Sequence record: MT446405.1
Direction: 5' to 3' (one strand)
Origin: Escherichia virus TH32
Length of the DNA stretch: 64,000 bases
The position numbers and the translations under genes are program-made. The notes under the pieces are model-generated. The model made no database searches and had not been told where the DNA came from. It saw nothing but the letters and a program-made list of their open reading frames with translations. Numbering within the stretch: position 1 is the stretch's first letter; every line of letters starts with the position of its first letter. This document shows positions 12,884-57,394 of the stretch, piece by piece.

Positions 12884-13099
12884 ATGAAACTCATCGACCG
12901 CGCCATCAAAGCCATAGACAACCATTCCACGGCTATTGCATTTGTAATGGGATTCTGTTTTACTGCTGCGTTTGGCGACGTTCACACATTCAAGTCTGTC
13001 ATCTTGTGCTGGTCTATCTGGTCCCTCATTTCTCTGGTTTTGATTCTTCCGATGACGTGGCTTGTCCTTACTTGTCTGGAATCTCAAGGTGAAGACTGA
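12884..13099 (+). CDS. small membrane protein (two TMDs; holin-like candidate)
   Basis: 71 aa with two hydrophobic segments and charged C-terminus; GGAGG RBS. Confidence 0.45.
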   Translation: MKLIDRAIKAIDNHSTAIAFVMGFCFTAAFGDVHTFKSVILCWSIWSLISLVLILPMTWLVLTCLESQGED

Positions 13100-13739: not shown

Positions 13740-14081
13740 ATGAACAACACTTTATCACAACTGCTAATCTGGACTATCGCCGCTATCATCGGCACCGTTA
13801 TTATGATGTCAAGCGCAAAGGCTGAAACGGATATTTGCGGCAGACTGATTTCTGAAAACGGTGAAATTTACTATGGCAACTCAAAAGGCGATTACATATC
13901 ACCTGAAGTTTGCGCTCAGAAGAAAGCGGAAATGCAAAAGCAGTATCATGAAGATCAATCTATATCTCAAGCCGCGCTGATTGAATTAAGTATATCAGCC
14001 ATCATCTTTCTAATCGTTTTTATGCTCATTATTAAACCAAATAATGGCAGTAATCGTCATATTCCTCTCAAAAGAAATTAA
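13740..14081 (+). CDS. membrane protein with N-terminal signal/TMD and C-terminal TMD
   Basis: Internal Met 13740 with AAAGAGG RBS; the W/R/C-rich N-terminal extension of ORF 13548 judged non-coding. Confidence 0.45.
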   Translation: MNNTLSQLLIWTIAAIIGTVIMMSSAKAETDICGRLISENGEIYYGNSKGDYISPEVCAQKKAEMQKQYHEDQSISQAALIELSISAIIFLIVFMLIIKPNNGSNRHIPLKRN

Positions 14082-14119: not shown

Positions 14120-16423
14120 ATGCCAAGGCTAATATTCAAAAACAACTTTGAGGTCGCACTGGCTCAGCCAACGACGACTTCAGACACCACAATCACAATC
14201 CGCTCAGGGTCTGGCTTTCCGACCTTGGCCGCAAACGAGCGTGTAGTGGCGACAATCGTCGACGCTGCAACAGGCCTCCAATTCGAAATCGTCACAGTAA
14301 CAGCCGTGGTCGGAAACGTGTTGACTGTCCAGCGTGCACAGGAAGGTACTGCAGCGCGTGCATGGGCGGCTGGCGACATGCTCTCCATTCGAACTACTGC
14401 TGCGACTTTGACTAATACCGTCCGAAATTACGGCACAATTCCATCAGGGATGGATTTGAACGCATTAGATGGCACCTGGTTTGGGGAATATCAGCAACCA
14501 AGTGCAGGCGCGGCATCCAGTTCTTTACACTATCCTGTTTCACAAGCAGGGGTATTACTTGTCAAACAGGTGAACGAGCAAAATCCATCTCACTGCATTC
14601 AAATATACTATCCTACACTGGAAGGAATAGTATATGTCAGAAGGTACAGAGGTTCATGGACTGGATGGGTTCAAATGTTTGGTCAAGGCGATGTTATTCC
14701 AGTAGGGAATGGCGGTACAGGCCAAACAACCATTCAGGGGATGAAAGACGCTTTTGGATTTGGAACAGTTGCTGATCAGAATATAGTTCCGACTTCCATG
14801 GGCGGCACAGGTTCTGCTGATAATGCTCAAGCATGGCTCAACATTCGACCGCAAGGTTCAACGCCGCTGGCGGGTGACCCAGTAAACGATTATGACGCTA
14901 CGACTAAACGTTGGGTTGAGAACTTGATCAACACAGGCACCGTTGGCCCAAGCATGAACGGTGTCATGAATTATGGCGTTGGCGATTTCCATTTACGAGA
15001 TAGTCGTGCTTACATCCAACCGTATGAAGTTGTTGCAGACGGGCAATTGCTAAACCGTGCGGACTGGCCTGAGCTTTGGGCTTATGCGCAGATGCTGACG
15101 CCTATTGCTGATGCAGACTGGCTTGCAGACCCTTTGAAGCGCGGAAAATATTCGCTTGGTAACGGCACAACAACATTCCGTGTACCAGACCGTAACGGTG
15201 TGCAAACAGGGTCCATAGATTCATTGTATGCACGTGGCGACGGTGGAATATCAAGTTTAAACGGTAACGTGATCGAATCAGGCGCACCAAACATTACTGG
15301 ATCACTAAGGACTGTAACTTCTTATTCGGTCTTCGAGTCTGTATCAGGAGTCACAGGAGCATTTAACGGTTCAGAGTTGCAACAATACGCGGGGTTGACT
15401 GTAGCGCCTGGTTCTGCAAGTAACTATCCGAGAACGGTAACGTTCAACGCATCAAGGTCAAGTCCTGTTTACGGCAGAACTTCCACTGAAATCCGACCGA
15501 AATCATTCATCGGTGTTTGGGTGATTCGTGCATCTGGTGGATTTGTTGCTGCGAATACGCAGTGGAGTGTAATTACTGGTGACTCATCCCGTCCGTCATC
15601 AGGAGTAACAACGGACGGTGGCGAAATAATTTCAAGATATAATATTGGAACGGCACAGGAAGCCCAGATGAGCTGGCGCGTCCGAGCTTTAATCGGCGGG
15701 ACATATTATGCTCGACTTAATGTATCGAACGCAACAAAAGGCACCACCACTGTATTTGATTTTGACGACACTGGCGCAATGGCTGCTCCTGGTCCAATTT
15801 CTGCTGGTGCTGCTGGTTCCAATTTTAAAAGCACAATAGAAGTAAATAACGTTTCTTATCCAGGACTTTTGTTCAAGCCTACGTACACAAATGGAAGCGT
15901 GATACCTGATACTGTTGTTGGAGGGAATACATTTTTTGAATGCTCATTTATTCAGGGGCAAATATCAGGCGTGCAATTGTATCGTAGAAGGAAAGACGGG
16001 ATTGCCACAGGGCAAATAGCAATTTCCTTCCCTACCACTGCAGGAACGCTTGCACTTCAAGGCACATCAGGCATTGAATATAAAAAGGACGTTGTAGATG
16101 CAGATGCCAAGGAAGCTATGGAGCGAATCAATTCGCAGCGTCTTGTCAATTTCATTTATAAGGATGATGAGCAAGAGCGTGTGAGATTTGGTATAATCGC
16201 TGAAGAAGCAGAATTGATTGCGCCGCAATATATCAAGCACAATCAAGAAAACGTTTCCGACATTCTTGATGAAGAAGGAAACAAGATAGGCGAGGAAACG
16301 CGCGACCGACCTTCAGTTGACACCAACCCAATCGTAATGGACTTGATGGGTTGTGTGCAATATCTCAATAAGCAGATTGAGGATTTGAAGGCAGAGATAG
16401 CCGCGCTGAAAGCAGCGAAATAA
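14120..16423 (+). CDS. tail fibre/tailspike with C-terminal intramolecular chaperone (peptidase S74) domain
   Basis: C-terminus GIIAEEAELIAPQYI ... DLMGCVQYLNKQIEDLKAEIAALKAAK matches the auto-cleaving chaperone domain of endosialidase/L-shaped fibre proteins. Confidence 0.8.
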   Translation: MPRLIFKNNFEVALAQPTTTSDTTITIRSGSGFPTLAANERVVATIVDAATGLQFEIVTVTAVVGNVLTVQRAQEGTAARAWAAGDMLSIRTTAATLTNTVRNYGTIPSGMDLNALDGTWFGEYQQPSAGAASSSLHYPVSQAGVLLVKQVNEQNPSHCIQIYYPTLEGIVYVRRYRGSWTGWVQMFGQGDVIPVGNGGTGQTTIQGMKDAFGFGTVADQNIVPTSMGGTGSADNAQAWLNIRPQGSTPLAGDPVNDYDATTKRWVENLINTGTVGPSMNGVMNYGVGDFHLRDSRAYIQPYEVVADGQLLNRADWPELWAYAQMLTPIADADWLADPLKRGKYSLGNGTTTFRVPDRNGVQTGSIDSLYARGDGGISSLNGNVIESGAPNITGSLRTVTSYSVFESVSGVTGAFNGSELQQYAGLTVAPGSASNYPRTVTFNASRSSPVYGRTSTEIRPKSFIGVWVIRASGGFVAANTQWSVITGDSSRPSSGVTTDGGEIISRYNIGTAQEAQMSWRVRALIGGTYYARLNVSNATKGTTTVFDFDDTGAMAAPGPISAGAAGSNFKSTIEVNNVSYPGLLFKPTYTNGSVIPDTVVGGNTFFECSFIQGQISGVQLYRRRKDGIATGQIAISFPTTAGTLALQGTSGIEYKKDVVDADAKEAMERINSQRLVNFIYKDDEQERVRFGIIAEEAELIAPQYIKHNQENVSDILDEEGNKIGEETRDRPSVDTNPIVMDLMGCVQYLNKQIEDLKAEIAALKAAK

Positions 16424-47383: not shown

Positions 47384-47631
47384 TGAGTAAAAAAGTTCTG
47401 TTAATTGGGCCGCGTAACTCCGGCAAGACTACCAGTGCAAATAAAATTGCCGAAGTCATGGGACTTGCAGAAATATTTGAGCTTGACGGATTCAAAGTGC
47501 CAAACGGTTATAAGTTGCGCGATGACGTTGATGCCCTGTTTATAGCATCAAAACTTCCTCGCGGAATCCGTCGAGAACATTTTGACATAGTCATTGAAAT
47601 TAATAAGGGGTACATAAATGTCAACTATTAA
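47383..47631 (+). CDS. small P-loop protein
   Basis: Walker A-like LLIGPRNSGKTT. Confidence 0.45.
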   Translation: MSKKVLLIGPRNSGKTTSANKIAEVMGLAEIFELDGFKVPNGYKLRDDVDALFIASKLPRGIRREHFDIVIEINKGYINVNY

Positions 47632-48175
47632 CTGGGAAGATGATCTGCCGCAAGTAGCTCCTGAAAGTATTCAAGAGCGCCTTGCGCGCTTAGTATCTGA
47701 ACTGGCAGAACGCCAAGAAGCTTTGACAGAGCTTGAAGATGAAGCTGATATGCAAAAGCAGCGCATCAGTGAAATCAAAACTGTTCTGCTTCCTGGCGTT
47801 ATGGATGAGCTTGGTGTGTCCGAAATCAAGCTTGAGGACAAGACCAAAATCAAGGTCGAGTCCAAGGTGAACGCTTCAATCAAGAAAGAAAACGAATTAA
47901 AAGTTTTCGATTGGCTTGTAAACAACGGTTACGGCGGCTTGATCAAGTCCAGCGTCACGGCTGAGTTCGGTCGCGAAGAAATTGAACAGGCGCAAGAGAT
48001 TGTTGCCGCGCTGCGTGAAGATGGTGTTGAAGCCACGTTGAAACAAGGCGTTCATTCTGCTACACTGAAGTCGTTTGTAAAAGAACAGCTGGAAGCAGGC
48101 AATCCAGTTAGTGAAGATATTAGCGTTTTTGAATACAAAGAAGCTAAAATAACCTTGCCTAAAAGCAAAAAGTAA
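47618..48175 (+). CDS. hypothetical acidic coiled-coil protein
   Basis: 185 aa, AAGGGG RBS. Confidence 0.45.
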   Translation: MSTINWEDDLPQVAPESIQERLARLVSELAERQEALTELEDEADMQKQRISEIKTVLLPGVMDELGVSEIKLEDKTKIKVESKVNASIKKENELKVFDWLVNNGYGGLIKSSVTAEFGREEIEQAQEIVAALREDGVEATLKQGVHSATLKSFVKEQLEAGNPVSEDISVFEYKEAKITLPKSKK

Positions 48176-49095: not shown

Positions 49096-49114
49096 TCGAC
49101 AATCAAATCAACAA

Positions 49115-49140
49115 GGCTGCCGATTGGCGGCCTTTTATTT
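49115..49140 (+). terminator. terminator-like hairpin
   Basis: GGCTGCC-gatt-GGCGGCC followed by TTTTATTT. Confidence 0.45.
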
Positions 49141-49152
49141 ATCTGGTGCATC

Positions 49153-49671
49153 ATGATAGAAAGAATTGTACCGCTCCTGAAGATTCTTGCCCTTGTTGGC
49201 GCGTTTGCCGCTGGATCATACGTTGAAGACCTGCAGCAAACCAACGCATCACTGACCAAGGATAATCAATATCTGAAATCGCTTAATGAGCGTAAGGACA
49301 AGATAAATGCACTCGAAGAGCAAATTGCATCTTTACAGGTTGAATCGGCATCGGCATATGAGAAAGGTCGCCAGGAAGCGCAACTGGTTGCTGATGACAC
49401 TATTGCTCGTTACAAGTCTGGGAATATCAAGCTGCGCGCGCAACTCAGCTGCTCCCGTGAGTTACTCAGGCGTGTGCCCGACTCTGCGACCACTGGACGC
49501 CTCTCTATCCCAGAAGGAAACTGTGGACTATCAGAAGATGATGTCAGATTTCTTGTTCAGTTCGCCGCAGAAACAAATCGATTAAAAGAGAAAGTTAATA
49601 GCTTGATTGATACTTATAATCAGGCTAAAATAAAAATCGATCAATTCAATGCATCAAAGGAAAATAAATGA
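49153..49671 (+). CDS. Rz: i-spanin (Rz-like)
   Basis: N-terminal TMD (IVPLLKILALVGAFAAGSYV) followed by coiled-coil periplasmic domain; contains embedded out-of-frame lipoprotein ORF. Confidence 0.6.
   Translation: MIERIVPLLKILALVGAFAAGSYVEDLQQTNASLTKDNQYLKSLNERKDKINALEEQIASLQVESASAYEKGRQEAQLVADDTIARYKSGNIKLRAQLSCSRELLRRVPDSATTGRLSIPEGNCGLSEDDVRFLVQFAAETNRLKEKVNSLIDTYNQAKIKIDQFNASKENK
49358..49585 (+). CDS. Rz1: o-spanin (Rz1-like lipoprotein), embedded
   Basis: In +1 frame inside Rz: MRKVARKRNWLLMTLLLVTSLGISS-C lipoprotein signal with lipobox, Pro-containing mature part with second Cys; alternative start 49394. Confidence 0.6.
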   Translation: MRKVARKRNWLLMTLLLVTSLGISSCARNSAAPVSYSGVCPTLRPLDASLSQKETVDYQKMMSDFLFSSPQKQID

Positions 49672-51307: not shown

Positions 51308-51338
51308 AAAGCCGGTTAATCCGGCTTTTCTTTTATTT
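51308..51338 (+). terminator. rho-independent terminator
   Basis: AGCCGG-ttaa-TCCGGCT followed by TTTCTTTTATTT. Confidence 0.65.
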
Positions 51339-51410: not shown

Positions 51411-51953
51411 ATGAAAGCTAACAAATTAAAGATTGTTTTGATCATCATCATGGCCATGCTGACAGTAATATTCTTCACCAAAACTGCATCTGCTGAAAAT
51501 ATGTTTACGCCGCCGAATAGTAATGCAAAGGTGCTGACAAGATACTTTAACAACGGTCAATCTTTTGAGTTCTGCTGGAATAAATATGACGTTGTAAAGA
51601 GCAAGTTCGGCAAAGAAAAGATGTGTGTAATGAATGATCGCGGTCGACAGGTCGTGTCATTTGTTTTCGGAATGTCCATGGCAAAAGTTGATGCCCCTGA
51701 AATCGTTGTCAGGTATAATACATTGGACAGCGGCCTTGTCGACAAGACATACCCTGTTGCAGTAGACAGCAGGACAGGCGGCGCACTCATACTTACTCCA
51801 GAAGATAAATCAGATGTCGTTAACATGCTCATCAACAGCAAAGACGTAATCGTGTTTTATCATGTTGAAGGCGTATCAGACTACCAAATGGCCTACTATC
51901 CACTGCCCTTAAGAGATGCTTCAGGTAATGTTAAGACACAGGACGTGCGTTGA
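51411..51953 (+). CDS. secreted protein (Sec signal peptide)
   Basis: MKANKLKIVLIIIMAMLTVIFFTKTASA then ENMF: n/h/c regions with AxA cleavage site. Confidence 0.55.
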   Translation: MKANKLKIVLIIIMAMLTVIFFTKTASAENMFTPPNSNAKVLTRYFNNGQSFEFCWNKYDVVKSKFGKEKMCVMNDRGRQVVSFVFGMSMAKVDAPEIVVRYNTLDSGLVDKTYPVAVDSRTGGALILTPEDKSDVVNMLINSKDVIVFYHVEGVSDYQMAYYPLPLRDASGNVKTQDVR

Positions 51954-52180
51954 CATGGGTGGTAGTTATGCAGAAAGATTTGGAAGAAAACAAAAGGCTG
52001 AAAAAGGCTTTGACGTCTCAAATCTTGTCCCTGTTGGTAAAGCTTATTGGGGAGTCAATTAGCAACAAGGTGGCACGGGCCGCGATTGTTGGCGTGATTG
52101 GCATGGCGGGGTATTACTTCGACTTGCCAGACATTGATACAAGCTCCGCGCCGCCCGTCCAGGTTGAAGCCGTAAAATAA
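51950..52180 (+). CDS. small protein with C-terminal hydrophobic segment
   Basis: 76 aa; AAIVGVIGMAGYYF hydrophobic stretch. Confidence 0.35.
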   Translation: MTWVVVMQKDLEENKRLKKALTSQILSLLVKLIGESISNKVARAAIVGVIGMAGYYFDLPDIDTSSAPPVQVEAVK

Positions 52181-52183
52181 ACA

Positions 52184-52207
52184 AAGGCCCATATGGGCCT
52201 TTTCTTA
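52184..52207. terminator. bidirectional rho-independent terminator
   Basis: Perfect palindrome GGCCCATATGGGCC flanked by A-run and T-run between convergent genes. Confidence 0.7.
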
Positions 52208-52849
52208 CATAACTGCTAGTGCATCCTTGTAACGCTTCCGTCGCAAATCCCCATGGTTAGCCGTATTCGGCGCGGCCCCGTTAATCCGCTTAACAGTCGA
52301 ATCAAATGCACCCGCATCGGCAAGAGGAATACAGCCGCTATTCTTAAAGAACCATGCCGCGCTGTCAGCGATGTATTTTGGTTCAGTCAGAATATCAGGA
52401 TTGTTCAATGCGTCATAGCCTGATTGCTTTGAATAATCTGCATAGTTATCCTTTCCAGTCAGCTGAATGGCACCACGGCCACGGTACTTCCAACCGTCTC
52501 CCGATGCTACCGAACCGTTGCCCATGCGGTTTGCATATGTATTATTGGCGATTTCCATTGGTTTACGGGCAATCGACAATGCCAAGGAGTTGGGTGCACC
52601 GCCGAAACGACCGCTGGCGCTGTAACGGCTAGGCCATGTATTAGCAAGACCTTGAGCGGAATAATTCAAGTTTTCCACAAATGTCTTCAGACTGCCTGTT
52701 TCCACTCCTACGTTTGCAAGCAACGCCGCGATGGCGTTCTTGCTTTTGATTCCGTAGTGCTCACAAGCCTTCTTGAAAGGGTCCACCCATTTCTCTGCGA
52801 CATCCATGCTGCATCCGGTCCCTTTAGATATTACGTTTGCATTAATCAT
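52205..52849 (-). CDS. endolysin, glycoside hydrolase family 19 (chitinase-like)
   Basis: GH19 signature GRGAIQLTGKDNY and upstream ANVGVETG; AAGGTGA RBS. Confidence 0.8.
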   Translation of the reverse strand: MINANVISKGTGCSMDVAEKWVDPFKKACEHYGIKSKNAIAALLANVGVETGSLKTFVENLNYSAQGLANTWPSRYSASGRFGGAPNSLALSIARKPMEIANNTYANRMGNGSVASGDGWKYRGRGAIQLTGKDNYADYSKQSGYDALNNPDILTEPKYIADSAAWFFKNSGCIPLADAGAFDSTVKRINGAAPNTANHGDLRRKRYKDALAVM

Positions 52850-52857
52850 AAATCACC

Positions 52858-54645
52858 TTATGCGCTTCTGTACCAGCCGTTCAAGACGACATATCGCGGC
52901 AGGGTTGAGACAGCCGTTGGAACAGACTGCCCTGCGTTGCCAGTGTTACCGACCACATCGTGAGTGTGAGCGGGAAGGGTATAGCTATGGCTGTGATTGC
53001 CAGCGTAATTTATATTCAACCCATGGGTGTGTGACCCAGAAGATTGGATATTGTGGACGTGGTTGCCGTTAGTCGAGGTGTTGTATTTGTAGTTATCCCA
53101 GTCGCCGCCCTTTCGACTGCCGAAGTTGTTGTGCGTATTGTCATACACGCCATACCGCGCATCATTCGTATTCGCCTCACCCCAGCTACTGTCATGGTGG
53201 TGGTTGCCTGCCGAATCCATTCCGTGCACGTGAGCACCGTTTTGACTGGTATCGCCTGTGTGGTTATGGCTGCCCGCATCTCCAGTGGTATTTGACCATG
53301 GACCGCTTTGTCGCGTAGTAATGTTCACGCTGTGATTGTGCAGAGGAAGCATGGCGGCGGTAAGGGTGACGGAGTCCGCGCCGCCAGTGGCAAGACCGTT
53401 TCGTGCCGTGCCGGATGTTCTGATGACCATGTTATCAGGCAATCTGGTCCACACCTGTCCATAAGCGCCAAGCTTGGTGTTTGGGTTGGTGCCATTAGTC
53501 AAGAATCGAGTCTCACCGACTTCGAATACATCACCCATAGTGATCAACTTAGAAGCCAAATCATCGAGTTGACGCTTTGTCACAAACTGTTGCGGCTCAC
53601 TAGCATCAACACCGATTTGCGCCGCGCCGAATGCTTGAAGAAGACGCCAGACTGTTCCGTCATAAATAATGGTGAAAGGCAGCAGACCGACGATGGACCC
53701 TGCTGGCAACTCGCCGCCGTCGAATCCAAGGACGGCAACCTTGTTTGCACCAATGGTCACGGTGACAGGCCCAGTGGTCGTGACATCATTGACGATGGTC
53801 AGGCGACTACCTGCTGACGGAGGCCATGAATAACCTGCTGGAACGGTAAGGATTATATCTTGTGCGCCTTTACCTGATGCAAGATTCGGCGTTCCAATTT
53901 GCACGTCTTGAACAGTAGCATTTTGAATCCAGGCACTCCAAGCACCAGAAGTATAAGAGCGGGTGAAAACATATCCGTTCATTGACGTGTATTGTTGCAG
54001 GGCGAAAGTCTGCGCATCAACCTGCCAAGCGCAAACCTGGAGGCGACCTGCAGCCTTCGTCGCACCAACCGCGTTCGGGATGTTAGAGCAGAGAGCGGCA
54101 ACGGCGTCAGATTGAATGACAATAGTTGTGGAAGTCGTGATATTATCAAAGTCCACAAAGTTTGAAATCAGTCCGCGAACAAAATACGGGTTTTGCGCAT
54201 CGCCGCCAGCAGGCATAGGAATATACTTTCGCGCTTCGCTAGGCAGCGTTAATTCCTGCCAAGATTCCGTTTCGCCGTTGGCTGGTACGGCGCTGGTGTT
54301 GCCGTCAACCACGCTCTGGAAAATGCGCCACTCAGGCGCTGAAGGAGTTCCAGAGTTGCTTACCACGATGGCGTTTTTCGGGTATCCATCTGGCTTCAAG
54401 TCAGACGAGAAATACTGTTGAGCGCCGTGGTCCTGGATGAACATCAGGTTGTCGGTGATCAGATTCAACAACCAGTTCATCGACTCACGTTCAACCGCTT
54501 TCGCGGCGACGTTTCCAGCTTCCAGAGCAAGTGCATAGTCAGGGGTGTAGCCGCGCTGGAAGTTCACATAACCGCTTGGGCTTGCATCCGGCACCACGGA
54601 TACATCACCGCTTTGCGCGAAAGGTCTGTTAATAAGTGTTGGCAT
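52858..54645 (-). CDS. tail fibre protein with His-x-His repeat tip (gp37-like distal fibre)
   Basis: C-terminal cluster of HxH motifs (HNHSVN, GSHNHTG, AHVHG, NHHHD, NHVHN, SHTHG, NHSHS, AHTHD); start at Met 54645 with GAGGAA RBS. Confidence 0.65.
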   Translation of the reverse strand: MPTLINRPFAQSGDVSVVPDASPSGYVNFQRGYTPDYALALEAGNVAAKAVERESMNWLLNLITDNLMFIQDHGAQQYFSSDLKPDGYPKNAIVVSNSGTPSAPEWRIFQSVVDGNTSAVPANGETESWQELTLPSEARKYIPMPAGGDAQNPYFVRGLISNFVDFDNITTSTTIVIQSDAVAALCSNIPNAVGATKAAGRLQVCAWQVDAQTFALQQYTSMNGYVFTRSYTSGAWSAWIQNATVQDVQIGTPNLASGKGAQDIILTVPAGYSWPPSAGSRLTIVNDVTTTGPVTVTIGANKVAVLGFDGGELPAGSIVGLLPFTIIYDGTVWRLLQAFGAAQIGVDASEPQQFVTKRQLDDLASKLITMGDVFEVGETRFLTNGTNPNTKLGAYGQVWTRLPDNMVIRTSGTARNGLATGGADSVTLTAAMLPLHNHSVNITTRQSGPWSNTTGDAGSHNHTGDTSQNGAHVHGMDSAGNHHHDSSWGEANTNDARYGVYDNTHNNFGSRKGGDWDNYKYNTSTNGNHVHNIQSSGSHTHGLNINYAGNHSHSYTLPAHTHDVVGNTGNAGQSVPTAVSTLPRYVVLNGWYRSA

Positions 54646-54655
54646 TGCCGTTCCT

Positions 54656-57394
54656 CTACACGATGTATTTAATTTTTGATAAAAGGGTCGATGCCCAATC
54701 ACCAGTTAAGTCAGTTATGTTCATGCTTGAAACATAACCACCAGCAGCACTTCTCGGAAAGTTTACTGTTGCTACAACATCACCATTAGAAGCAATCAAT
54801 TGAACTCCAGTGGCAAGTGATCCTGGGTTTTTGATGTATATAGAAGTCGCAGTTTTCTTTGCGAAATCTTCGCTTGTTGAAATTGCAAGCGCATTCATCG
54901 TATCGCCAGACACAAGCATTAAGCTCAAAATATCAAGGTCAAGAGTCGTACCAACTTCGGTCGGCAAATCTTTTCCTGATATCAAGCCGATGCTGATGCC
55001 GCCAGTTGATCCATCCCAGGTAGCGCCTTCAACAATCTCAGCGGCAAGGTCAATTTCGATACGTTGCAAATCACCTGCGCCTATGTTGTAGAATTTAGGG
55101 ATATAGCCACCCATCCCATCCGGTACAGTTACAAAAAGTTTTTGACCGTTAACCGTGTTGTTTTTGACTATTGCGATAAATGACAAAGGGCCAGTCAGGG
55201 TGCCAGTGTATTTAGTAGCAAGTACAGCACGTGCATAACCGGATGCTGGCACAGTCCCTATTGTAGCGGAAAGCTTGAATGATGGGAACTGGTTGGGCAC
55301 ACCGCTGATTGGCGTCGCTGTGACAGTGTTTGCGCCGTCCTTAACGATATTGCCAAATGAAGTTCCATCATTAGGCCGAGTATATCGCCAATAGTTAGTG
55401 ATTGCCGCGCGTGGTATTTCACGACCAAAGTCATCTCTTGATGCTTTTGAGATTGAATAGTCGTTGACGAGCGCGCCGTCGACGACCTGGTTTACACCTT
55501 TCAAAGATTCAAGCTGGCGTATCACACCGTTGAAGTTGTTCAGCGGCCACTCGTTAATGCCGCCAACTCTGATGATACCGTCAGTGTTAATCCACGCAAC
55601 ACCTTCCGTTTCAAATCCTACGCGCGTGTCTGTTATGTCGCTGACAGTCAAATCGATATCAGATAAGTCTGCGACTTCTTGGTAAAGCTGCCAGCGTATT
55701 CCGGCATTTGCTGGCAAGAATCCTTCATTCCTGTCGCCAACTAGCGTCTTAAAGTTGTCAGACAGGTTGTTGGCGAAATAAGGTCCGATGACGTATTCCA
55801 TGTAATAGTCGGCGGTCGGCGGCGGCGGTACTCCATCAAGCCTGCTAACGTTCCATGAGCGTCTGATGCCGTCAGTCTCTGCAATCAATGTGGCGTTCCC
55901 TGGGTACGGGTAGCCGCCGATTGAGCCAGAGTATGCAAGTGATGAGCCAGGTTGCATGAATGACTCGCCAACCACACCGTTTCTTGTCGTCAGCGGTCCG
56001 TTTGCACAGGAGATGTTGTTGAGCGTTCCCGCCGTTACAGACAGTATTGCTGTTCCGTCAGAAGGAGGGTTTTGCGTTCCATAAAAATAAGGCTCAGGTC
56101 CATTTGGATTCTGAACAGGGTCGCAGACGCAAATCGAGTATCCAAAAAGAAGTGCATCAGACCCTTCAGGCAATTCACGAGTTTGAGTTGATCCAGCGGC
56201 AGTCGCCTTCAACTCTATTGAAAAGCTGGTACTTACTCCAGACGCAGCGGTTGCCGTCTGCTCTACAATCCAGATTCGATACCAATCGCCGCCGATTGCT
56301 TTGATGCCACCACGGCTTGATTCCCTTCTTACTCCATCGAATTTGCCTTTGATGAAATAGCTCAATGACGGGTCCAAGTTGAACTGGCCAGTGACGGGGT
56401 CAAACAACTTTCCATTGCTCGATGCATCACTATTCTCTGTAACAGAAACAGAAGCGACGTTTTCAGAAAGCACCTTTATGTAGAAGCTATAGCAAACGTT
56501 AACGCCAGCCTGCGAAGGAAGGGCAATTGACTGTGCGCTTGGATTATTGGCCAAAGAATACACAGGCTCACCGCTTGAAGCCGTCTTGACGACCCTTACT
56601 GCGTTGGCAAAATTCTCTATTGCCTCACCTGGGTAATCGCCACACAACTGCCCATAGTAATCAGGACCACCATACTGTCTGGTGTCGCCGCCGACAAGCC
56701 CTGTGCCGGAACCATTTCCCCATGAGTACCAATCTGGGTGCGCCATCCGTGACACGGTGCCTGATACTCCGCTGATGGTCAGTCCGGCGTTGTTGCCATG
56801 GCTTAAAAGTATCTGCTTATAATCGTGCTGAATCTCAGTTGACCCCTGCCAGTCGTACAGAAGGAATGAGCCATTGGTTGATTCAGACGAAGACACCGCG
56901 CCTTGAGTATTGTCGGTCACATATGCGTAGCGTGATGAAGAGTAATCCCAAGCCTCTCCACGGTTGAAAATCCACTTAAGCATGCGGTTGATACTTTCGA
57001 TGCGGCCATCACTTGTAAGCGTCAGATAACGAAGCTTAAGAAGTATGCGCGCTTCTTCGATATTCTTTACAACCTTACCGCCAGCACCAAAGAAGTTGCC
57101 GCCGATGTTGTCCGCACCTTCAAAGTTGTCACGCGTCGGTCCAAACGCCCAGTTGTGCTCATAATTGCTTAAGTCCACAAAGTCTCTTGGTATGCAAAGA
57201 ATGTCGCACCAAATATAAATGCCCATTGCATCACAAGTGTCAATGTTGAAAATGTTGTTGTACCAGTCAGTCCAAAACTGATCTTGGTATCTTTCATACC
57301 AGTCACTTTTCTTTTGCACCAAAGACGTGATGTTTGGTGCATTGTTCTGCATCCACTTAAGGTTTTGCAACAGGTTTGTGTCAAACTTTTGCAT
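54656..57394 (-). CDS. large tail fibre/baseplate protein
   Basis: 912 aa between baseplate and fibre genes; position-based. Confidence 0.4.
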   Translation of the reverse strand: MQKFDTNLLQNLKWMQNNAPNITSLVQKKSDWYERYQDQFWTDWYNNIFNIDTCDAMGIYIWCDILCIPRDFVDLSNYEHNWAFGPTRDNFEGADNIGGNFFGAGGKVVKNIEEARILLKLRYLTLTSDGRIESINRMLKWIFNRGEAWDYSSSRYAYVTDNTQGAVSSSESTNGSFLLYDWQGSTEIQHDYKQILLSHGNNAGLTISGVSGTVSRMAHPDWYSWGNGSGTGLVGGDTRQYGGPDYYGQLCGDYPGEAIENFANAVRVVKTASSGEPVYSLANNPSAQSIALPSQAGVNVCYSFYIKVLSENVASVSVTENSDASSNGKLFDPVTGQFNLDPSLSYFIKGKFDGVRRESSRGGIKAIGGDWYRIWIVEQTATAASGVSTSFSIELKATAAGSTQTRELPEGSDALLFGYSICVCDPVQNPNGPEPYFYGTQNPPSDGTAILSVTAGTLNNISCANGPLTTRNGVVGESFMQPGSSLAYSGSIGGYPYPGNATLIAETDGIRRSWNVSRLDGVPPPPTADYYMEYVIGPYFANNLSDNFKTLVGDRNEGFLPANAGIRWQLYQEVADLSDIDLTVSDITDTRVGFETEGVAWINTDGIIRVGGINEWPLNNFNGVIRQLESLKGVNQVVDGALVNDYSISKASRDDFGREIPRAAITNYWRYTRPNDGTSFGNIVKDGANTVTATPISGVPNQFPSFKLSATIGTVPASGYARAVLATKYTGTLTGPLSFIAIVKNNTVNGQKLFVTVPDGMGGYIPKFYNIGAGDLQRIEIDLAAEIVEGATWDGSTGGISIGLISGKDLPTEVGTTLDLDILSLMLVSGDTMNALAISTSEDFAKKTATSIYIKNPGSLATGVQLIASNGDVVATVNFPRSAAGGYVSSMNITDLTGDWASTLLSKIKYIV

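Follow-up and report, generated by a model that had tools for sequence, protein, structure and literature searches.

The window analysed here, a 64,000-nucleotide stretch of Escherichia virus TH32 (MT446405.1), is Wifcevirus (E. coli myophage) DNA; it is 95-98% identical to WFC, FEC19, ECML-117 and Mansfield, and 28 Wifcevirus genomes match it in this range. The gene at 49153..49671 (+) codes for a 172-aa Rz-like protein, identified as an i-spanin from PHROG 1327, HMM searches, an AlphaFold2 model, hydropathy and the annotation of its counterparts in Mansfield and Bas98-101. Hydropathy, the only method applied to this feature, gives a single hydrophobic segment at residues 5-21 (KD17 = 2.14) with a net charge of 0 before it and -2 after it, and the segment together with its acidic flank is consistent with one N-terminal transmembrane domain (TMD) oriented N-in/C-out. 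The AlphaFold2 model (mean pLDDT 79.7) has a helix at residues 5-106, an unstructured linker at 107-127 and a second helix at 128-170, so that the predicted periplasmic domain consists of two helical segments; in ECML-117 a coiled coil is predicted at residues 25-77 of the periplasmic domain (Kongari supplement, PMC6139136). The predicted periplasmic cysteines are Cys100, which is invariant in five aligned lineages, and Cys124, which lies within the linker and is kept in four of the five (Mica has Gly).

An intrinsic-terminator-like hairpin found by terminator scan (49113..49134, +; a 9 bp stem with 6 G-C pairs, followed by TTATTTAT) precedes the i-spanin start codon by 19 nt. The records of Mansfield, WFC and WFH label its equivalent a terminator, and the relatives L057-L060 keep a hairpin upstream of the i-spanin with altered stem sequences. 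A Shine-Dalgarno-like GGTG is read from the sequence at 49145..49148 (+); L057-L060 have GGTG or GAGG at equal spacing, and the same GGT is marked for the ECML-117 i-spanin in the Kongari 2018 supplement (PMC6139136). A scan of the 19-nt gap between hairpin and start found no convincing sigma-70-like promoter, and a gap of this length leaves no space for one.

Nested within this gene in the +1 frame, since (49358-49153) mod 3 = 1, is an Rz1-like o-spanin gene (49307..49585, +), assigned from conservation, stop counts, synonymous sites and the Mansfield and Bas98-101 annotations. It ends at 49585 and is therefore embedded, lying wholly inside the i-spanin gene, and it reads MRKVARKRNWLLMTLLLVTSLGISS followed by CARNSAAPVSYSGVCPTLRPLD... 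A rule-based call recognizes a signal peptidase II signal here: the n-region is basic, LLMTLLLVTSLG forms the hydrophobic core, and the lipobox I-S-S-C is followed by Ala at +2. The predicted lipidated Cys is codon 43 (49433-49435), and the predicted mature product has 50 aa, 4 Pro and a second Cys at mature position 15. The lipobox is kept as I/M/T-S-S/G-C in all relatives and the second Cys is invariant in the five aligned lineages; by sequence, each subunit thus has at least one predicted periplasmic cysteine. Signal peptide sequences diverge among the homologues, but the basic n-region, hydrophobic core and lipobox Cys are retained. What a sequence-only reading of this DNA had described, a 172-aa protein with an N-terminal TMD and coiled-coil-like body that wholly contains a +1-frame lipoprotein gene whose short, Pro-containing mature peptide carries a second Cys, is borne out in each of these particulars.

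The start of the nested gene has been drawn in two ways. The open frame begins at ATG 49307, giving the 92-aa precursor of the GenBank records, and the alternative ATG 49358 gives the 75-aa form listed for ECML-117 in the Kongari census and taken in the sequence-only reading, with a 25-residue signal peptide. The pair would be just as real if translation began at 49358, and homologues in PY54, Mica and Lietduovirus do begin at the aligned position with signal peptides of 14-19 residues, whereas the 42-residue signal peptide of the longer form, with its 26-residue basic n-region, would be atypical of lipoproteins. ATG 49358 is also conserved in all lineages, but this follows from conservation of the Rz residues Tyr-Glu, and a Shine-Dalgarno-like sequence precedes it in none of five lineages. 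By contrast, a Shine-Dalgarno AAGGA (49294..49298, +), built by the Rz codons Arg-Lys(AAG)-Asp, stands 8 nt upstream of ATG 49307, and it does so in all five; the Lys codon in it is AAG in 5/5 divergent lineages, while AAA and AAG are used about equally genome-wide. The Rz residue over ATG 49307 varies (N, H, Y, D, N), yet it is always encoded by a NAT codon and followed by a codon beginning with G, so that the ATG is preserved. The Mansfield annotation likewise places a ribosome-binding site for the 92-aa CDS 8 nt upstream of the equivalent ATG (L001:5396-5399). The conserved upstream ATG and its ribosome-binding site favour the 92-aa start, and we regard initiation at 49358 as possible, if the less probable choice. 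Both starts yield the same mature lipoprotein and the main conclusion is therefore unaffected. The long, strongly basic signal peptide predicted from the upstream ATG could tune the timing of o-spanin export.

The spanin pair stands at the end of the block of replication genes, and an endolysin gene lies about 2.5-3 kb away on the opposite strand; a stretch of 3.7 kb, where the replication and tail arms converge, takes in the spanins, the endolysin and a 70-aa membrane protein. The endolysin (52205..52849, -; 214 aa) is of the GH19 type (PF00182, 30 bits against a cut-off of 25.5; PHROG 181 'endolysin', E = 1.7e-69), is 54% identical to the endolysin of Pbunavirus SCUT-S1, and lacks an N-terminal TMD or SAR domain. 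Its gene is the last of the leftward tail operon, directly downstream of a tail-fibre gene (52858-54702, -), and the sequence-only reading had placed it correctly, some 3 kb off on the opposite strand at the end of that operon. Converging on it is the 70-aa gene (51968..52180, +), the last of the rightward arm, and a terminator hairpin found by terminator scan (52183..52202) separates the two; Mansfield has terminators annotated on both strands at the equivalent site.

The 70-aa protein is characterized by its homology to the Pantoea phage protein PA1-LRP (48% identity, E = 7e-14) and by synteny. It has one TMD (residues ~35-51), it falls in PHROG 5165, of unknown function, and comparison with the holin families of PHROG and Pfam gave no match. 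PA1-LRP was reported to be toxic on expression and to strengthen killing by its endolysin (PMC11538084). Wherever the gene context of a relative was examined (SCUT-S1, Kyle, PA1 and L057-L059), the homologue of the 70-aa protein adjoins the endolysin, and two of these contigs carry a different endolysin type; a tblastn search finds further homologues in 289 Pseudomonas records, among which the context was checked in SCUT-S1 alone. From its sequence and position, 51968..52180 is the best candidate for a holin or lysis helper. Such a concrete holin candidate matters in a genus that is of therapy interest and reportedly has a very short latent period.

A competing view is that the lysis genes are truly scattered and that the holin is a distant, Wifcevirus-specific small membrane protein encoded near the second tail-fibre gene. 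The product of 12884-13099 (71 aa) has the size and the two-TMD layout of class II holins, and that of 13740-14081 (113 aa) has two strong TMDs, one N-terminal and one C-terminal, whereas the only TMD of the 70-aa protein is weakly hydrophobic and rich in Gly and Ala (KD17 = 1.48). Moreover, the PA1-LRP assays were slow (24 h) over-expression experiments and not holin tests (PMC11538084), and a holin is annotated in none of the Wifcevirus records examined. Neither of the distant genes, however, has a homologue outside the genus or a family match, while the 70-aa protein has stayed beside the endolysin even where the endolysin type was swapped, and we consider a distant holin unlikely. The 70-aa gene, like 12884-13099, was among the small TMD proteins in which the sequence-only reading proposed to look for a holin; neither product matches a holin family, and the small membrane proteins gave no informative match to PHROG or Pfam. 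The accompanying description of the lysis genes as unusually dispersed, with no obvious holin, is overstated: the genes span just 3.7 kb, an LRP homologue adjoins the endolysin, and unlinked spanin genes are well known elsewhere, for example T4 pseT.3/pseT.2 (PMC6139136).

Within the single sequence, evidence that the nested frame is coding is weak. When the synonymous codons of the 172-aa gene were shuffled 20,000 times, 9.8% of the shuffles had an open +1 run of at least 92 codons and 5.3% had a lipoprotein-like out-of-frame ORF under a loose rule, which is also satisfied by four of the 61 other long ORFs in the window. With chance levels of about 5-10% and these four false positives, significance within the sequence was rejected as sufficient, and only conservation lifts the nested ORF above chance.

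Conservation is extensive. The nested ORF was intact wherever it was compared, with 13/13 Wifcevirus genomes, 4/4 intermediate relatives whose i-spanins are 55-67% identical, and 34/34 complete distant Rz homologues; across several lineages, including ones in which the i-spanin is only 24-27% identical to the window protein over the whole alignment, the +1 frame is open with a lipobox Cys and signal peptide in all 51 complete homologues. In every homologous Rz gene examined, then, the embedded frame is kept, and the lack of conservation that the sequence-only reading had named as part of a refutation was not found. Its products are homologous in all lineages (motif C..CP..PP.D..LM.P...DF...MS.FLF), and in every comparison they are better conserved than what the Rz frame of the same DNA encodes. 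Across 12 homologues there are no stops in the +1 frame and 47 in the +2 frame, or about four per sequence. Codon pairs at identical Rz residues agree in 74% of cases inside the overlap and in 47% outside it (Fisher p = 1e-17, a value that overstates the certainty because the codon pairs share phylogeny), and within the genus there are 6 Rz-synonymous variable sites in the 279 nt inside the overlap versus 17 in the 231 nt outside it (p = 0.005). Judged from these alignments, Rz synonymous sites are selectively frozen in the overlap, and stops, codon use and synonymous variation together indicate protein-coding selection on both frames. An o-spanin HMM has the nested ORF as its sole match among 1,462 six-frame segments (E = 4e-21), but a shadow control in which the non-coding +2 frame scores 48.6 bits, against 72 bits for +1, shows that part of this score reflects DNA-level conservation; the HMM match was accordingly set aside as proof in favour of the stop counts, relative identity and synonymous-site freezing. 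The idea that the membrane-anchored coiled-coil protein alone is real, perhaps with a non-lysis role tied to its helicase, MazG and ligase neighbours, and that the +1 ORF is an untranslated by-product of codon usage or Rz-frame conservation, can draw on that neighbourhood, the shuffles, the loose-rule ORFs and the shadow score, but it is extremely improbable given the 51 open frames, the stops in +2, the frozen synonymous sites, a signal-peptide character retained without sequence conservation, and homologues that sit in bona fide lysis cassettes.

Family membership of the two proteins is transitive. The i-spanin matches PHROG 1327 'Rz-like spanin' over nearly the full profile (E = 1e-25; residues 6-160 against positions 9-156 of 158) but has no match to Pfam PF03245 (Phage_lysis) at E <= 0.1 and does not reach its gathering threshold, and the o-spanin has no Pfam match. 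Direct Pfam assignment was therefore dropped in favour of PHROG and transitive HMMs. The homologues in PY54, P744, Mica and Nafs113 (alignment A1) all match PF03245, the best with E = 6e-17, and an Rz HMM constructed from these four and eight further non-Wifcevirus Rz homologues finds the 49153-49671 ORF as its sole match in the six-frame window (E = 8e-28). Rz genes of PY54, P744, Mica and Lietduovirus are also found by tblastn at 27-45% identity, and the PY54 and Mica homologues lie in canonical holin-endolysin-spanin cassettes. By these sequence comparisons the window i-spanin is best described as a divergent PF03245 relative and not as a direct Pfam member.

Phages breach the bacterial outer membrane at lysis with Rz/Rz1-type spanins. 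Homology, coding constraint on both frames and synteny confirm that 49153-49671 and its nested ORF are a real Rz/Rz1-type embedded pair in the replication block, as the sequence-only reading had proposed, and taking these together with the gene anatomy we put the probability at about 93% that 49153-49671 and 49307/49358-49585 encode both subunits of a two-component spanin resembling lambda Rz/Rz1. Following the established lambda model, we infer where the proteins localise, that they form a complex and fuse membranes, and when they act. The N-terminal TMD would hold the i-spanin in the inner membrane, N-in/C-out, and the protein's two helical segments and flexible Cys-containing linker would reach into the periplasm. 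The nested +1 gene would give a prolipoprotein that signal peptidase II cuts before Cys43, which would be lipidated, and Ala at +2 would sort the o-spanin to the outer membrane. Across the periplasm the two proteins may then bind through their C-terminal parts, and the conserved Cys residues may form homodimer disulfides. Once holin and endolysin had removed the peptidoglycan mesh, the spanin complex would fuse inner and outer membranes as the last step of lysis. The pair would be co-transcribed with the MazG and DNA ligase genes at the distal end of the replication arm, downstream of the conserved hairpin.

The pair is not new to the genus, having been catalogued and annotated in Wifcevirus beforehand, and is in that sense ordinary. 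The Kongari 2018 census (BMC Bioinformatics 19:326; PMC6139136) classes the ECML-117 pair as a two-component spanin of embedded type, with a 519-nt i-spanin gene and a 75-aa o-spanin, and the same two CDS are labelled i-spanin and o-spanin in GenBank for Mansfield (CPT_Mansfield_057/058) and Bas98-101. These are the same genes as in the window, with 97% identical i-spanins, the same nested +1 ORF, lipobox and genome position, and only a few substitutions between them. The finding itself thus adds little beyond comparative support for an annotation dating from 2018-2019; a literature search found no experiment on any Wifcevirus spanin. Two points do differ from the existing record. The census left the ECML-117 proteins as singleton i- and o-spanin families, and here they are joined to those of PY54, P744, Mica and Lietduovirus. 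The nested o-spanin CDS is missing from most of the annotated Wifcevirus records found and from the PY54, P744 and Lietduovirus records, and the annotation of these can therefore be corrected.

Comparison with lambda Rz/Rz1 shows the same order of N-terminal TMD, helix, linker and helix, and an o-spanin gene that the i-spanin gene contains in full, in the +1 frame (PMC6139136); periplasmic Cys residues occur in both lambda subunits and are predicted in both here. With L the i-spanin gene length, the window o-spanin starts at ~0.30 L (ATG 49307) or 0.39 L (ATG 49358) and ends at 0.83 L, a lambda-like layout. Its mature form is much less Pro-rich than Rz1 (4 Pro in 50 aa versus 10 in 40 aa), and, unlike in lambda, the pair does not adjoin the holin and endolysin and the i-spanin falls below the PF03245 threshold. 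The nearest homologues outside the PB1-like myophages are the i-spanins of Yersinia phage PY54 (ORF63) and Burkholderia phage Mica, at 29-32% identity; their embedded Rz1 proteins are 42% and 41% identical, respectively, to the window o-spanin (alignment A2), sharing invariant Cys, Pro, Asp, Met and FLF positions, but in both phages the pair closes a contiguous holin-endolysin-spanin cassette. T4 pseT.3/pseT.2 offers a precedent for two-component spanin genes that do not adjoin the holin or endolysin (PMC6139136), although its architecture is separated, its sequences are unrelated, and its genes are tens of kilobases apart, compared with 2.5 kb here.

The unimolecular spanins of the T1 gp11/PB1 type do not describe this locus, as the i-spanin lacks a lipobox and the o-spanin lacks a C-terminal TMD. 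A search for a PB1-type u-spanin with its AWAC lipobox found none in coding context in the window, the SCUT-S1 locus or the Kyle locus; the sole six-frame AWAC match in the window is in a non-coding frame inside a tail-fibre gene. We also note that the 'U-spanin' label of Pbunavirus JJ01 ORF85 is probably a mis-annotation, since by position and length this ORF appears to match the Pam3 gp33-like protein, which is soluble and has neither a TMD nor a lipobox.

A different relationship is seen at the slot that the spanins occupy, between the Pam3_Gp34-like gene and MazG. In Pbunavirus and Kylevirus the same slot holds a 201-aa 'putative holin' (gp53 and gp063, respectively), which is likewise a membrane protein with a central coiled-coil-like helix, but which differs from the spanins in its Gly-rich N-terminus and two C-terminal TMDs, lacks a nested lipoprotein ORF and shares no sequence similarity with them. 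Its match to PF11351 GTA_holin_3TM is weak and below the cut-off (E = 0.018), and neither the window nor the whole Mansfield genome contains a gp53-like protein. One scenario, which we hold to be decidedly doubtful, is that in Wifcevirus an acquired lambdoid-type Rz/Rz1 cassette replaced the 201-aa protein in situ, within the gene order Pam3_Gp34-like / X / MazG / ligase; if the function of the slot were conserved, the 201-aa protein would be the envelope-disruption counterpart, as a non-canonical spanin or holin partner, and the 70-aa LRP-like protein would be the shared holin of the PB1-like group. With spanins in one lineage and a 201-aa membrane protein in others, this syntenic slot offers a clean example of lysis-gene mosaicism among PB1-like myophages, and the swap could help to assign a function to the 201-aa protein.

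The i-spanin ORF (49153-49671, plus strand) encodes a 172-aa Rz-like protein whose only hydrophobic segment, residues 5-21, precedes an acidic flank. AlphaFold2 (mean pLDDT 79.7) models it with a helix at residues 5-106, an unstructured linker at 107-127 and a second helix at 128-170, the same TMD-CC1-linker-CC2 layout as in lambda Rz (PMC6139136). This gene wholly encloses a +1 open frame that begins at ATG 49307 and stops at 49585 (plus strand); the enclosed frame has a second ATG at 49358, after which comes MRKVARKRNWLLMTLLLVTSLGISS-C. The mature o-spanin, a 50-aa lipoprotein with Ala at +2, contains four Pro and has its second Cys at position 15. A GH19 endolysin is encoded on the opposite strand (52205-52849), next after the tail-fibre gene and as the last gene of the tail operon. 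The sequence-only reading had described the N-terminal TMD and coiled-coil body, the enclosed lipoprotein frame with its lipobox Cys and Pro-containing mature peptide, and the position of the endolysin, and all of its factual statements hold.

When a 1-kb stretch around the spanin locus is used as a query, 28 phage records match at 95-98% nucleotide identity, all of them Wifcevirus myophages of E. coli or Shigella (WFC, WFH, FEC19, ECML-117, Mansfield, vB_Eco4M-7 and Bas98-101). Wifcevirus phages are PB1-like, with sizes of 66-72 kb (PMC6753283; PMC11990801). Protein searches identify i-spanins 55-67% identical to that of the window in four Logan contigs (L057-L060; SRR26188688, SRR23924999, ERR11042194 and ERR12350089) of up to 72.5 kb, which appear to be unsampled Wifcevirus relatives at roughly genus-level divergence. 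Their gene order is the same as that of the window.

The window sequence by itself does not place the nested ORF beyond chance. Synonymous codon resampling of the 172-aa gene gives a +1 open run of at least 92 codons in 9.8% of trials and, by a loose rule, an out-of-frame lipoprotein-like ORF in 5.3%; the same loose rule is passed by 4 of 61 other long ORFs of the window. It is the comparative evidence, as read from the homologous genes, that settles the question. The Wifcevirus genomes examined (13/13) all keep the nested ORF intact, with both of its ATGs and its lipobox Cys, and the ORF is present in all four Logan relatives with a lipobox of ISS-C, ISG-C or TSS-C and a conserved mature peptide. 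More distant homologues of Rz (27-45% identity), recovered by tblastn and an IMG/VR scan, occur in PY54-like Yersinia prophages, P744, Burkholderia phage Mica and its relatives, and Pantoea Lietduovirus. In all 34 complete genes among them a lipoprotein ORF is embedded in the +1 frame and its mature sequence is homologous (C..CP..PP.D..LM.P...DF...MS.FLF), and the signal peptides of the o-spanin homologues keep their character but not their sequence. The embedded frame is thus conserved in homologous Rz genes; a lack of such conservation, together with a negative LipoP result, is what the sequence-only reading had named as refuting its proposal.

A shadow of Rz-frame conservation is real. With HMMs made from each of the three frames of the same DNA, the window scores 61 bits for the Rz frame, 72 bits for +1 and 48.6 bits for +2, and because the +2 frame scores so well the +1 match alone is weak proof. 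However, across 12 homologues there are no stops in the +1 frame versus 47 in the +2 frame, and every pairwise comparison shows higher conservation for the +1 than for the Rz product. Identical Rz residues use identical codons in 74% of pairs inside the overlap versus 47% outside (five lineages; Fisher p = 1e-17, the pairs not being independent), and within the genus there are 17 Rz-synonymous variable sites in the 231 nt outside the nested ORF versus 6 in the 279 nt inside (p = 0.005). The nested frame is itself subject to coding selection. The locus is a real two-component embedded spanin pair, as had been proposed. The homologues in PY54, P744, Mica and Pantoea phage Nafs113 all match the Pfam family PF03245 (Rz lysis protein), and in PY54 and Mica the Rz homologue closes a canonical holin-endolysin-spanin cassette; the Wifcevirus pair is related to lambda Rz/Rz1 but divergent, and stands closest to PY54 and Lietduovirus.

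The o-spanin start is placed at ATG 49358 in the 2018 spanin census and the sequence-only reading, and at ATG 49307 in GenBank. In each of five divergent lineages an AAGGA precedes the upstream ATG by 8 nt, with Lys encoded by AAG in 5/5, although this genome uses AAA and AAG about equally. The Rz residue overlapping ATG 49307 is Asn, His, Tyr, Asp or Asn, always a NAT codon followed by a G-initial codon, so that the upstream ATG survives Rz amino acid change. The second ATG has no Shine-Dalgarno-like sequence before it in any of the five lineages, and its conservation follows from that of Tyr-Glu in Rz. A start at 49307 is therefore favoured, although perhaps both are in some use; the mature lipoprotein is identical from either.

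The spanin genes lie at the end of the replication arm, where the plus-strand order is DNA polymerase III alpha, helicases, Pam3 gp33-like and gp34-like genes, a hairpin, the spanins, a MazG-like gene and DNA ligase, followed by a terminator (51308-51328), a 180-aa signal-anchored protein, a 70-aa protein and a bidirectional terminator, beyond which the endolysin and tail fibre are on the minus strand. This convergent arrangement is identical in 4/4 intermediate relatives. To call the lysis genes unusually dispersed is right as to the position of the spanins but overstated, as all lysis candidates fall in the 3.7 kb around the meeting point of the arms; unlinked spanin genes are in any case known from T4. 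The strong hairpin terminator (49113-49134, plus strand) immediately before the i-spanin start recurs at equivalent sites in all of L057-L060, with differing stem sequences and compensatory changes, which suggests a conserved terminator or attenuator that may set spanin-MazG-ligase expression. The 180-aa protein (51411-51953, plus strand), between ligase and the gene for the 70-aa protein, has a strong N-terminal signal or anchor (ASA-EN); it has Kylevirus homologues at 35-37% identity and is absent from the equivalent place in Pbunavirus SCUT-S1.

Genes homologous to those flanking the spanins are found in SCUT-S1 (gp55, gp54, MazG, ligase, small protein and endolysin) and in Kylevirus Kyle and PA1, but there the spanin slot holds a 201-aa protein (SCUT-S1 gp53, L054:2563-3168; Kyle gp063, L056:3509-4114; PA1, L055:3621-4226). 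This is unrelated to spanins; its N-terminus is Gly-rich, and it has two TMDs and a coiled-coil-like region. Its annotation is that of a putative holin, with only sub-threshold similarity to PF11351. No homologue of it was found in the window or the whole Mansfield genome, and tblastn found no Rz homologue in Pbunavirus or Kylevirus. Two kinds of envelope-active genes have therefore been exchanged at this slot, and since the 201-aa form is common to two genera the spanin cassette is probably the newcomer.

No holin had been thought obvious near the lysis genes, but the 70-aa protein (51968-52180, plus strand), convergent with the endolysin and with one weak Gly/Ala-rich TMD, is the best candidate for a holin or helper, although it matches no holin family in PHROG or Pfam. 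It is 48% identical to PA1-LRP, the lysis helper of Pantoea phage PA1, whose expression is reported to inhibit growth and to enhance endolysin-mediated killing, on evidence that is weak and slow but experimental (PMC11538084). Homologues are present in 289 Pseudomonas phage records (tblastn); the gene adjoins the endolysin wherever context was examined (SCUT-S1, Kyle, PA1 and L057-L059) and is 'hypothetical' in every annotated record seen. In the uncultured relatives L057 (8078-8530) and L058 (8065-8520), both minus strand, the endolysin has been swapped at this fixed locus with the neighbouring LRP-like gene kept, the GH19 enzyme being replaced by a 150-aa protein (MLAWSEGT...) that may resemble a lambda R-type lysozyme. 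Two small membrane proteins, of 71 aa with two TMDs (12884-13099, plus strand) and 113 aa with a signal or TMD at the N-terminus and a TMD at the C-terminus (13740-14081, plus strand), are encoded just upstream of a tail-fibre gene (14120-16423); the second has a u-spanin-like topology but lacks a lipobox, and neither has homologues outside Wifcevirus.

The pair is already catalogued and annotated for Wifcevirus. In the census of Kongari et al. (2018), ECML-117 is among the 'Embedded' two-component spanins, with singleton families for the i- and o-spanin; the 172-aa i-spanin is the same in their supplement, where a 75-aa o-spanin and the gene coordinates are also given. Both CDS are annotated in GenBank for Mansfield (CPT_Mansfield_057/058) and Bas98-101, and RefSeq names the larger gene 'Rz-like spanin'; in many other records it is 'hypothetical' and the nested CDS is omitted. 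A literature search turned up no experiments on the lysis genes of Wifcevirus. What the locus still offers is a correction of annotations, a concrete candidate for the holin, evidence on the start codon and the exchange at the slot. The embedded o-spanins of PY54 (L004:2709-2918) and P744 (L006:2715-2906) have no CDS in their records. In Nafs113 the 'putative o-spanin' ORF67 (L003:4467-4733) is a separate upstream lipoprotein (MKKIILAALVAAAALSVG-C), and it is the unannotated ORF embedded in the i-spanin gene (L003:4993-5187) that is homologous to the Rz1 family. Pbunavirus JJ01 ORF85 carries the label 'U-spanin' (PMC9583000), probably a mis-annotation propagated from E215; by position and length it appears to be a homologue of the Pam3 gp33-like protein (PF23984/DUF7307; window 47618-48175, plus strand; L054:901-1521), which is soluble and lacks a lipobox.
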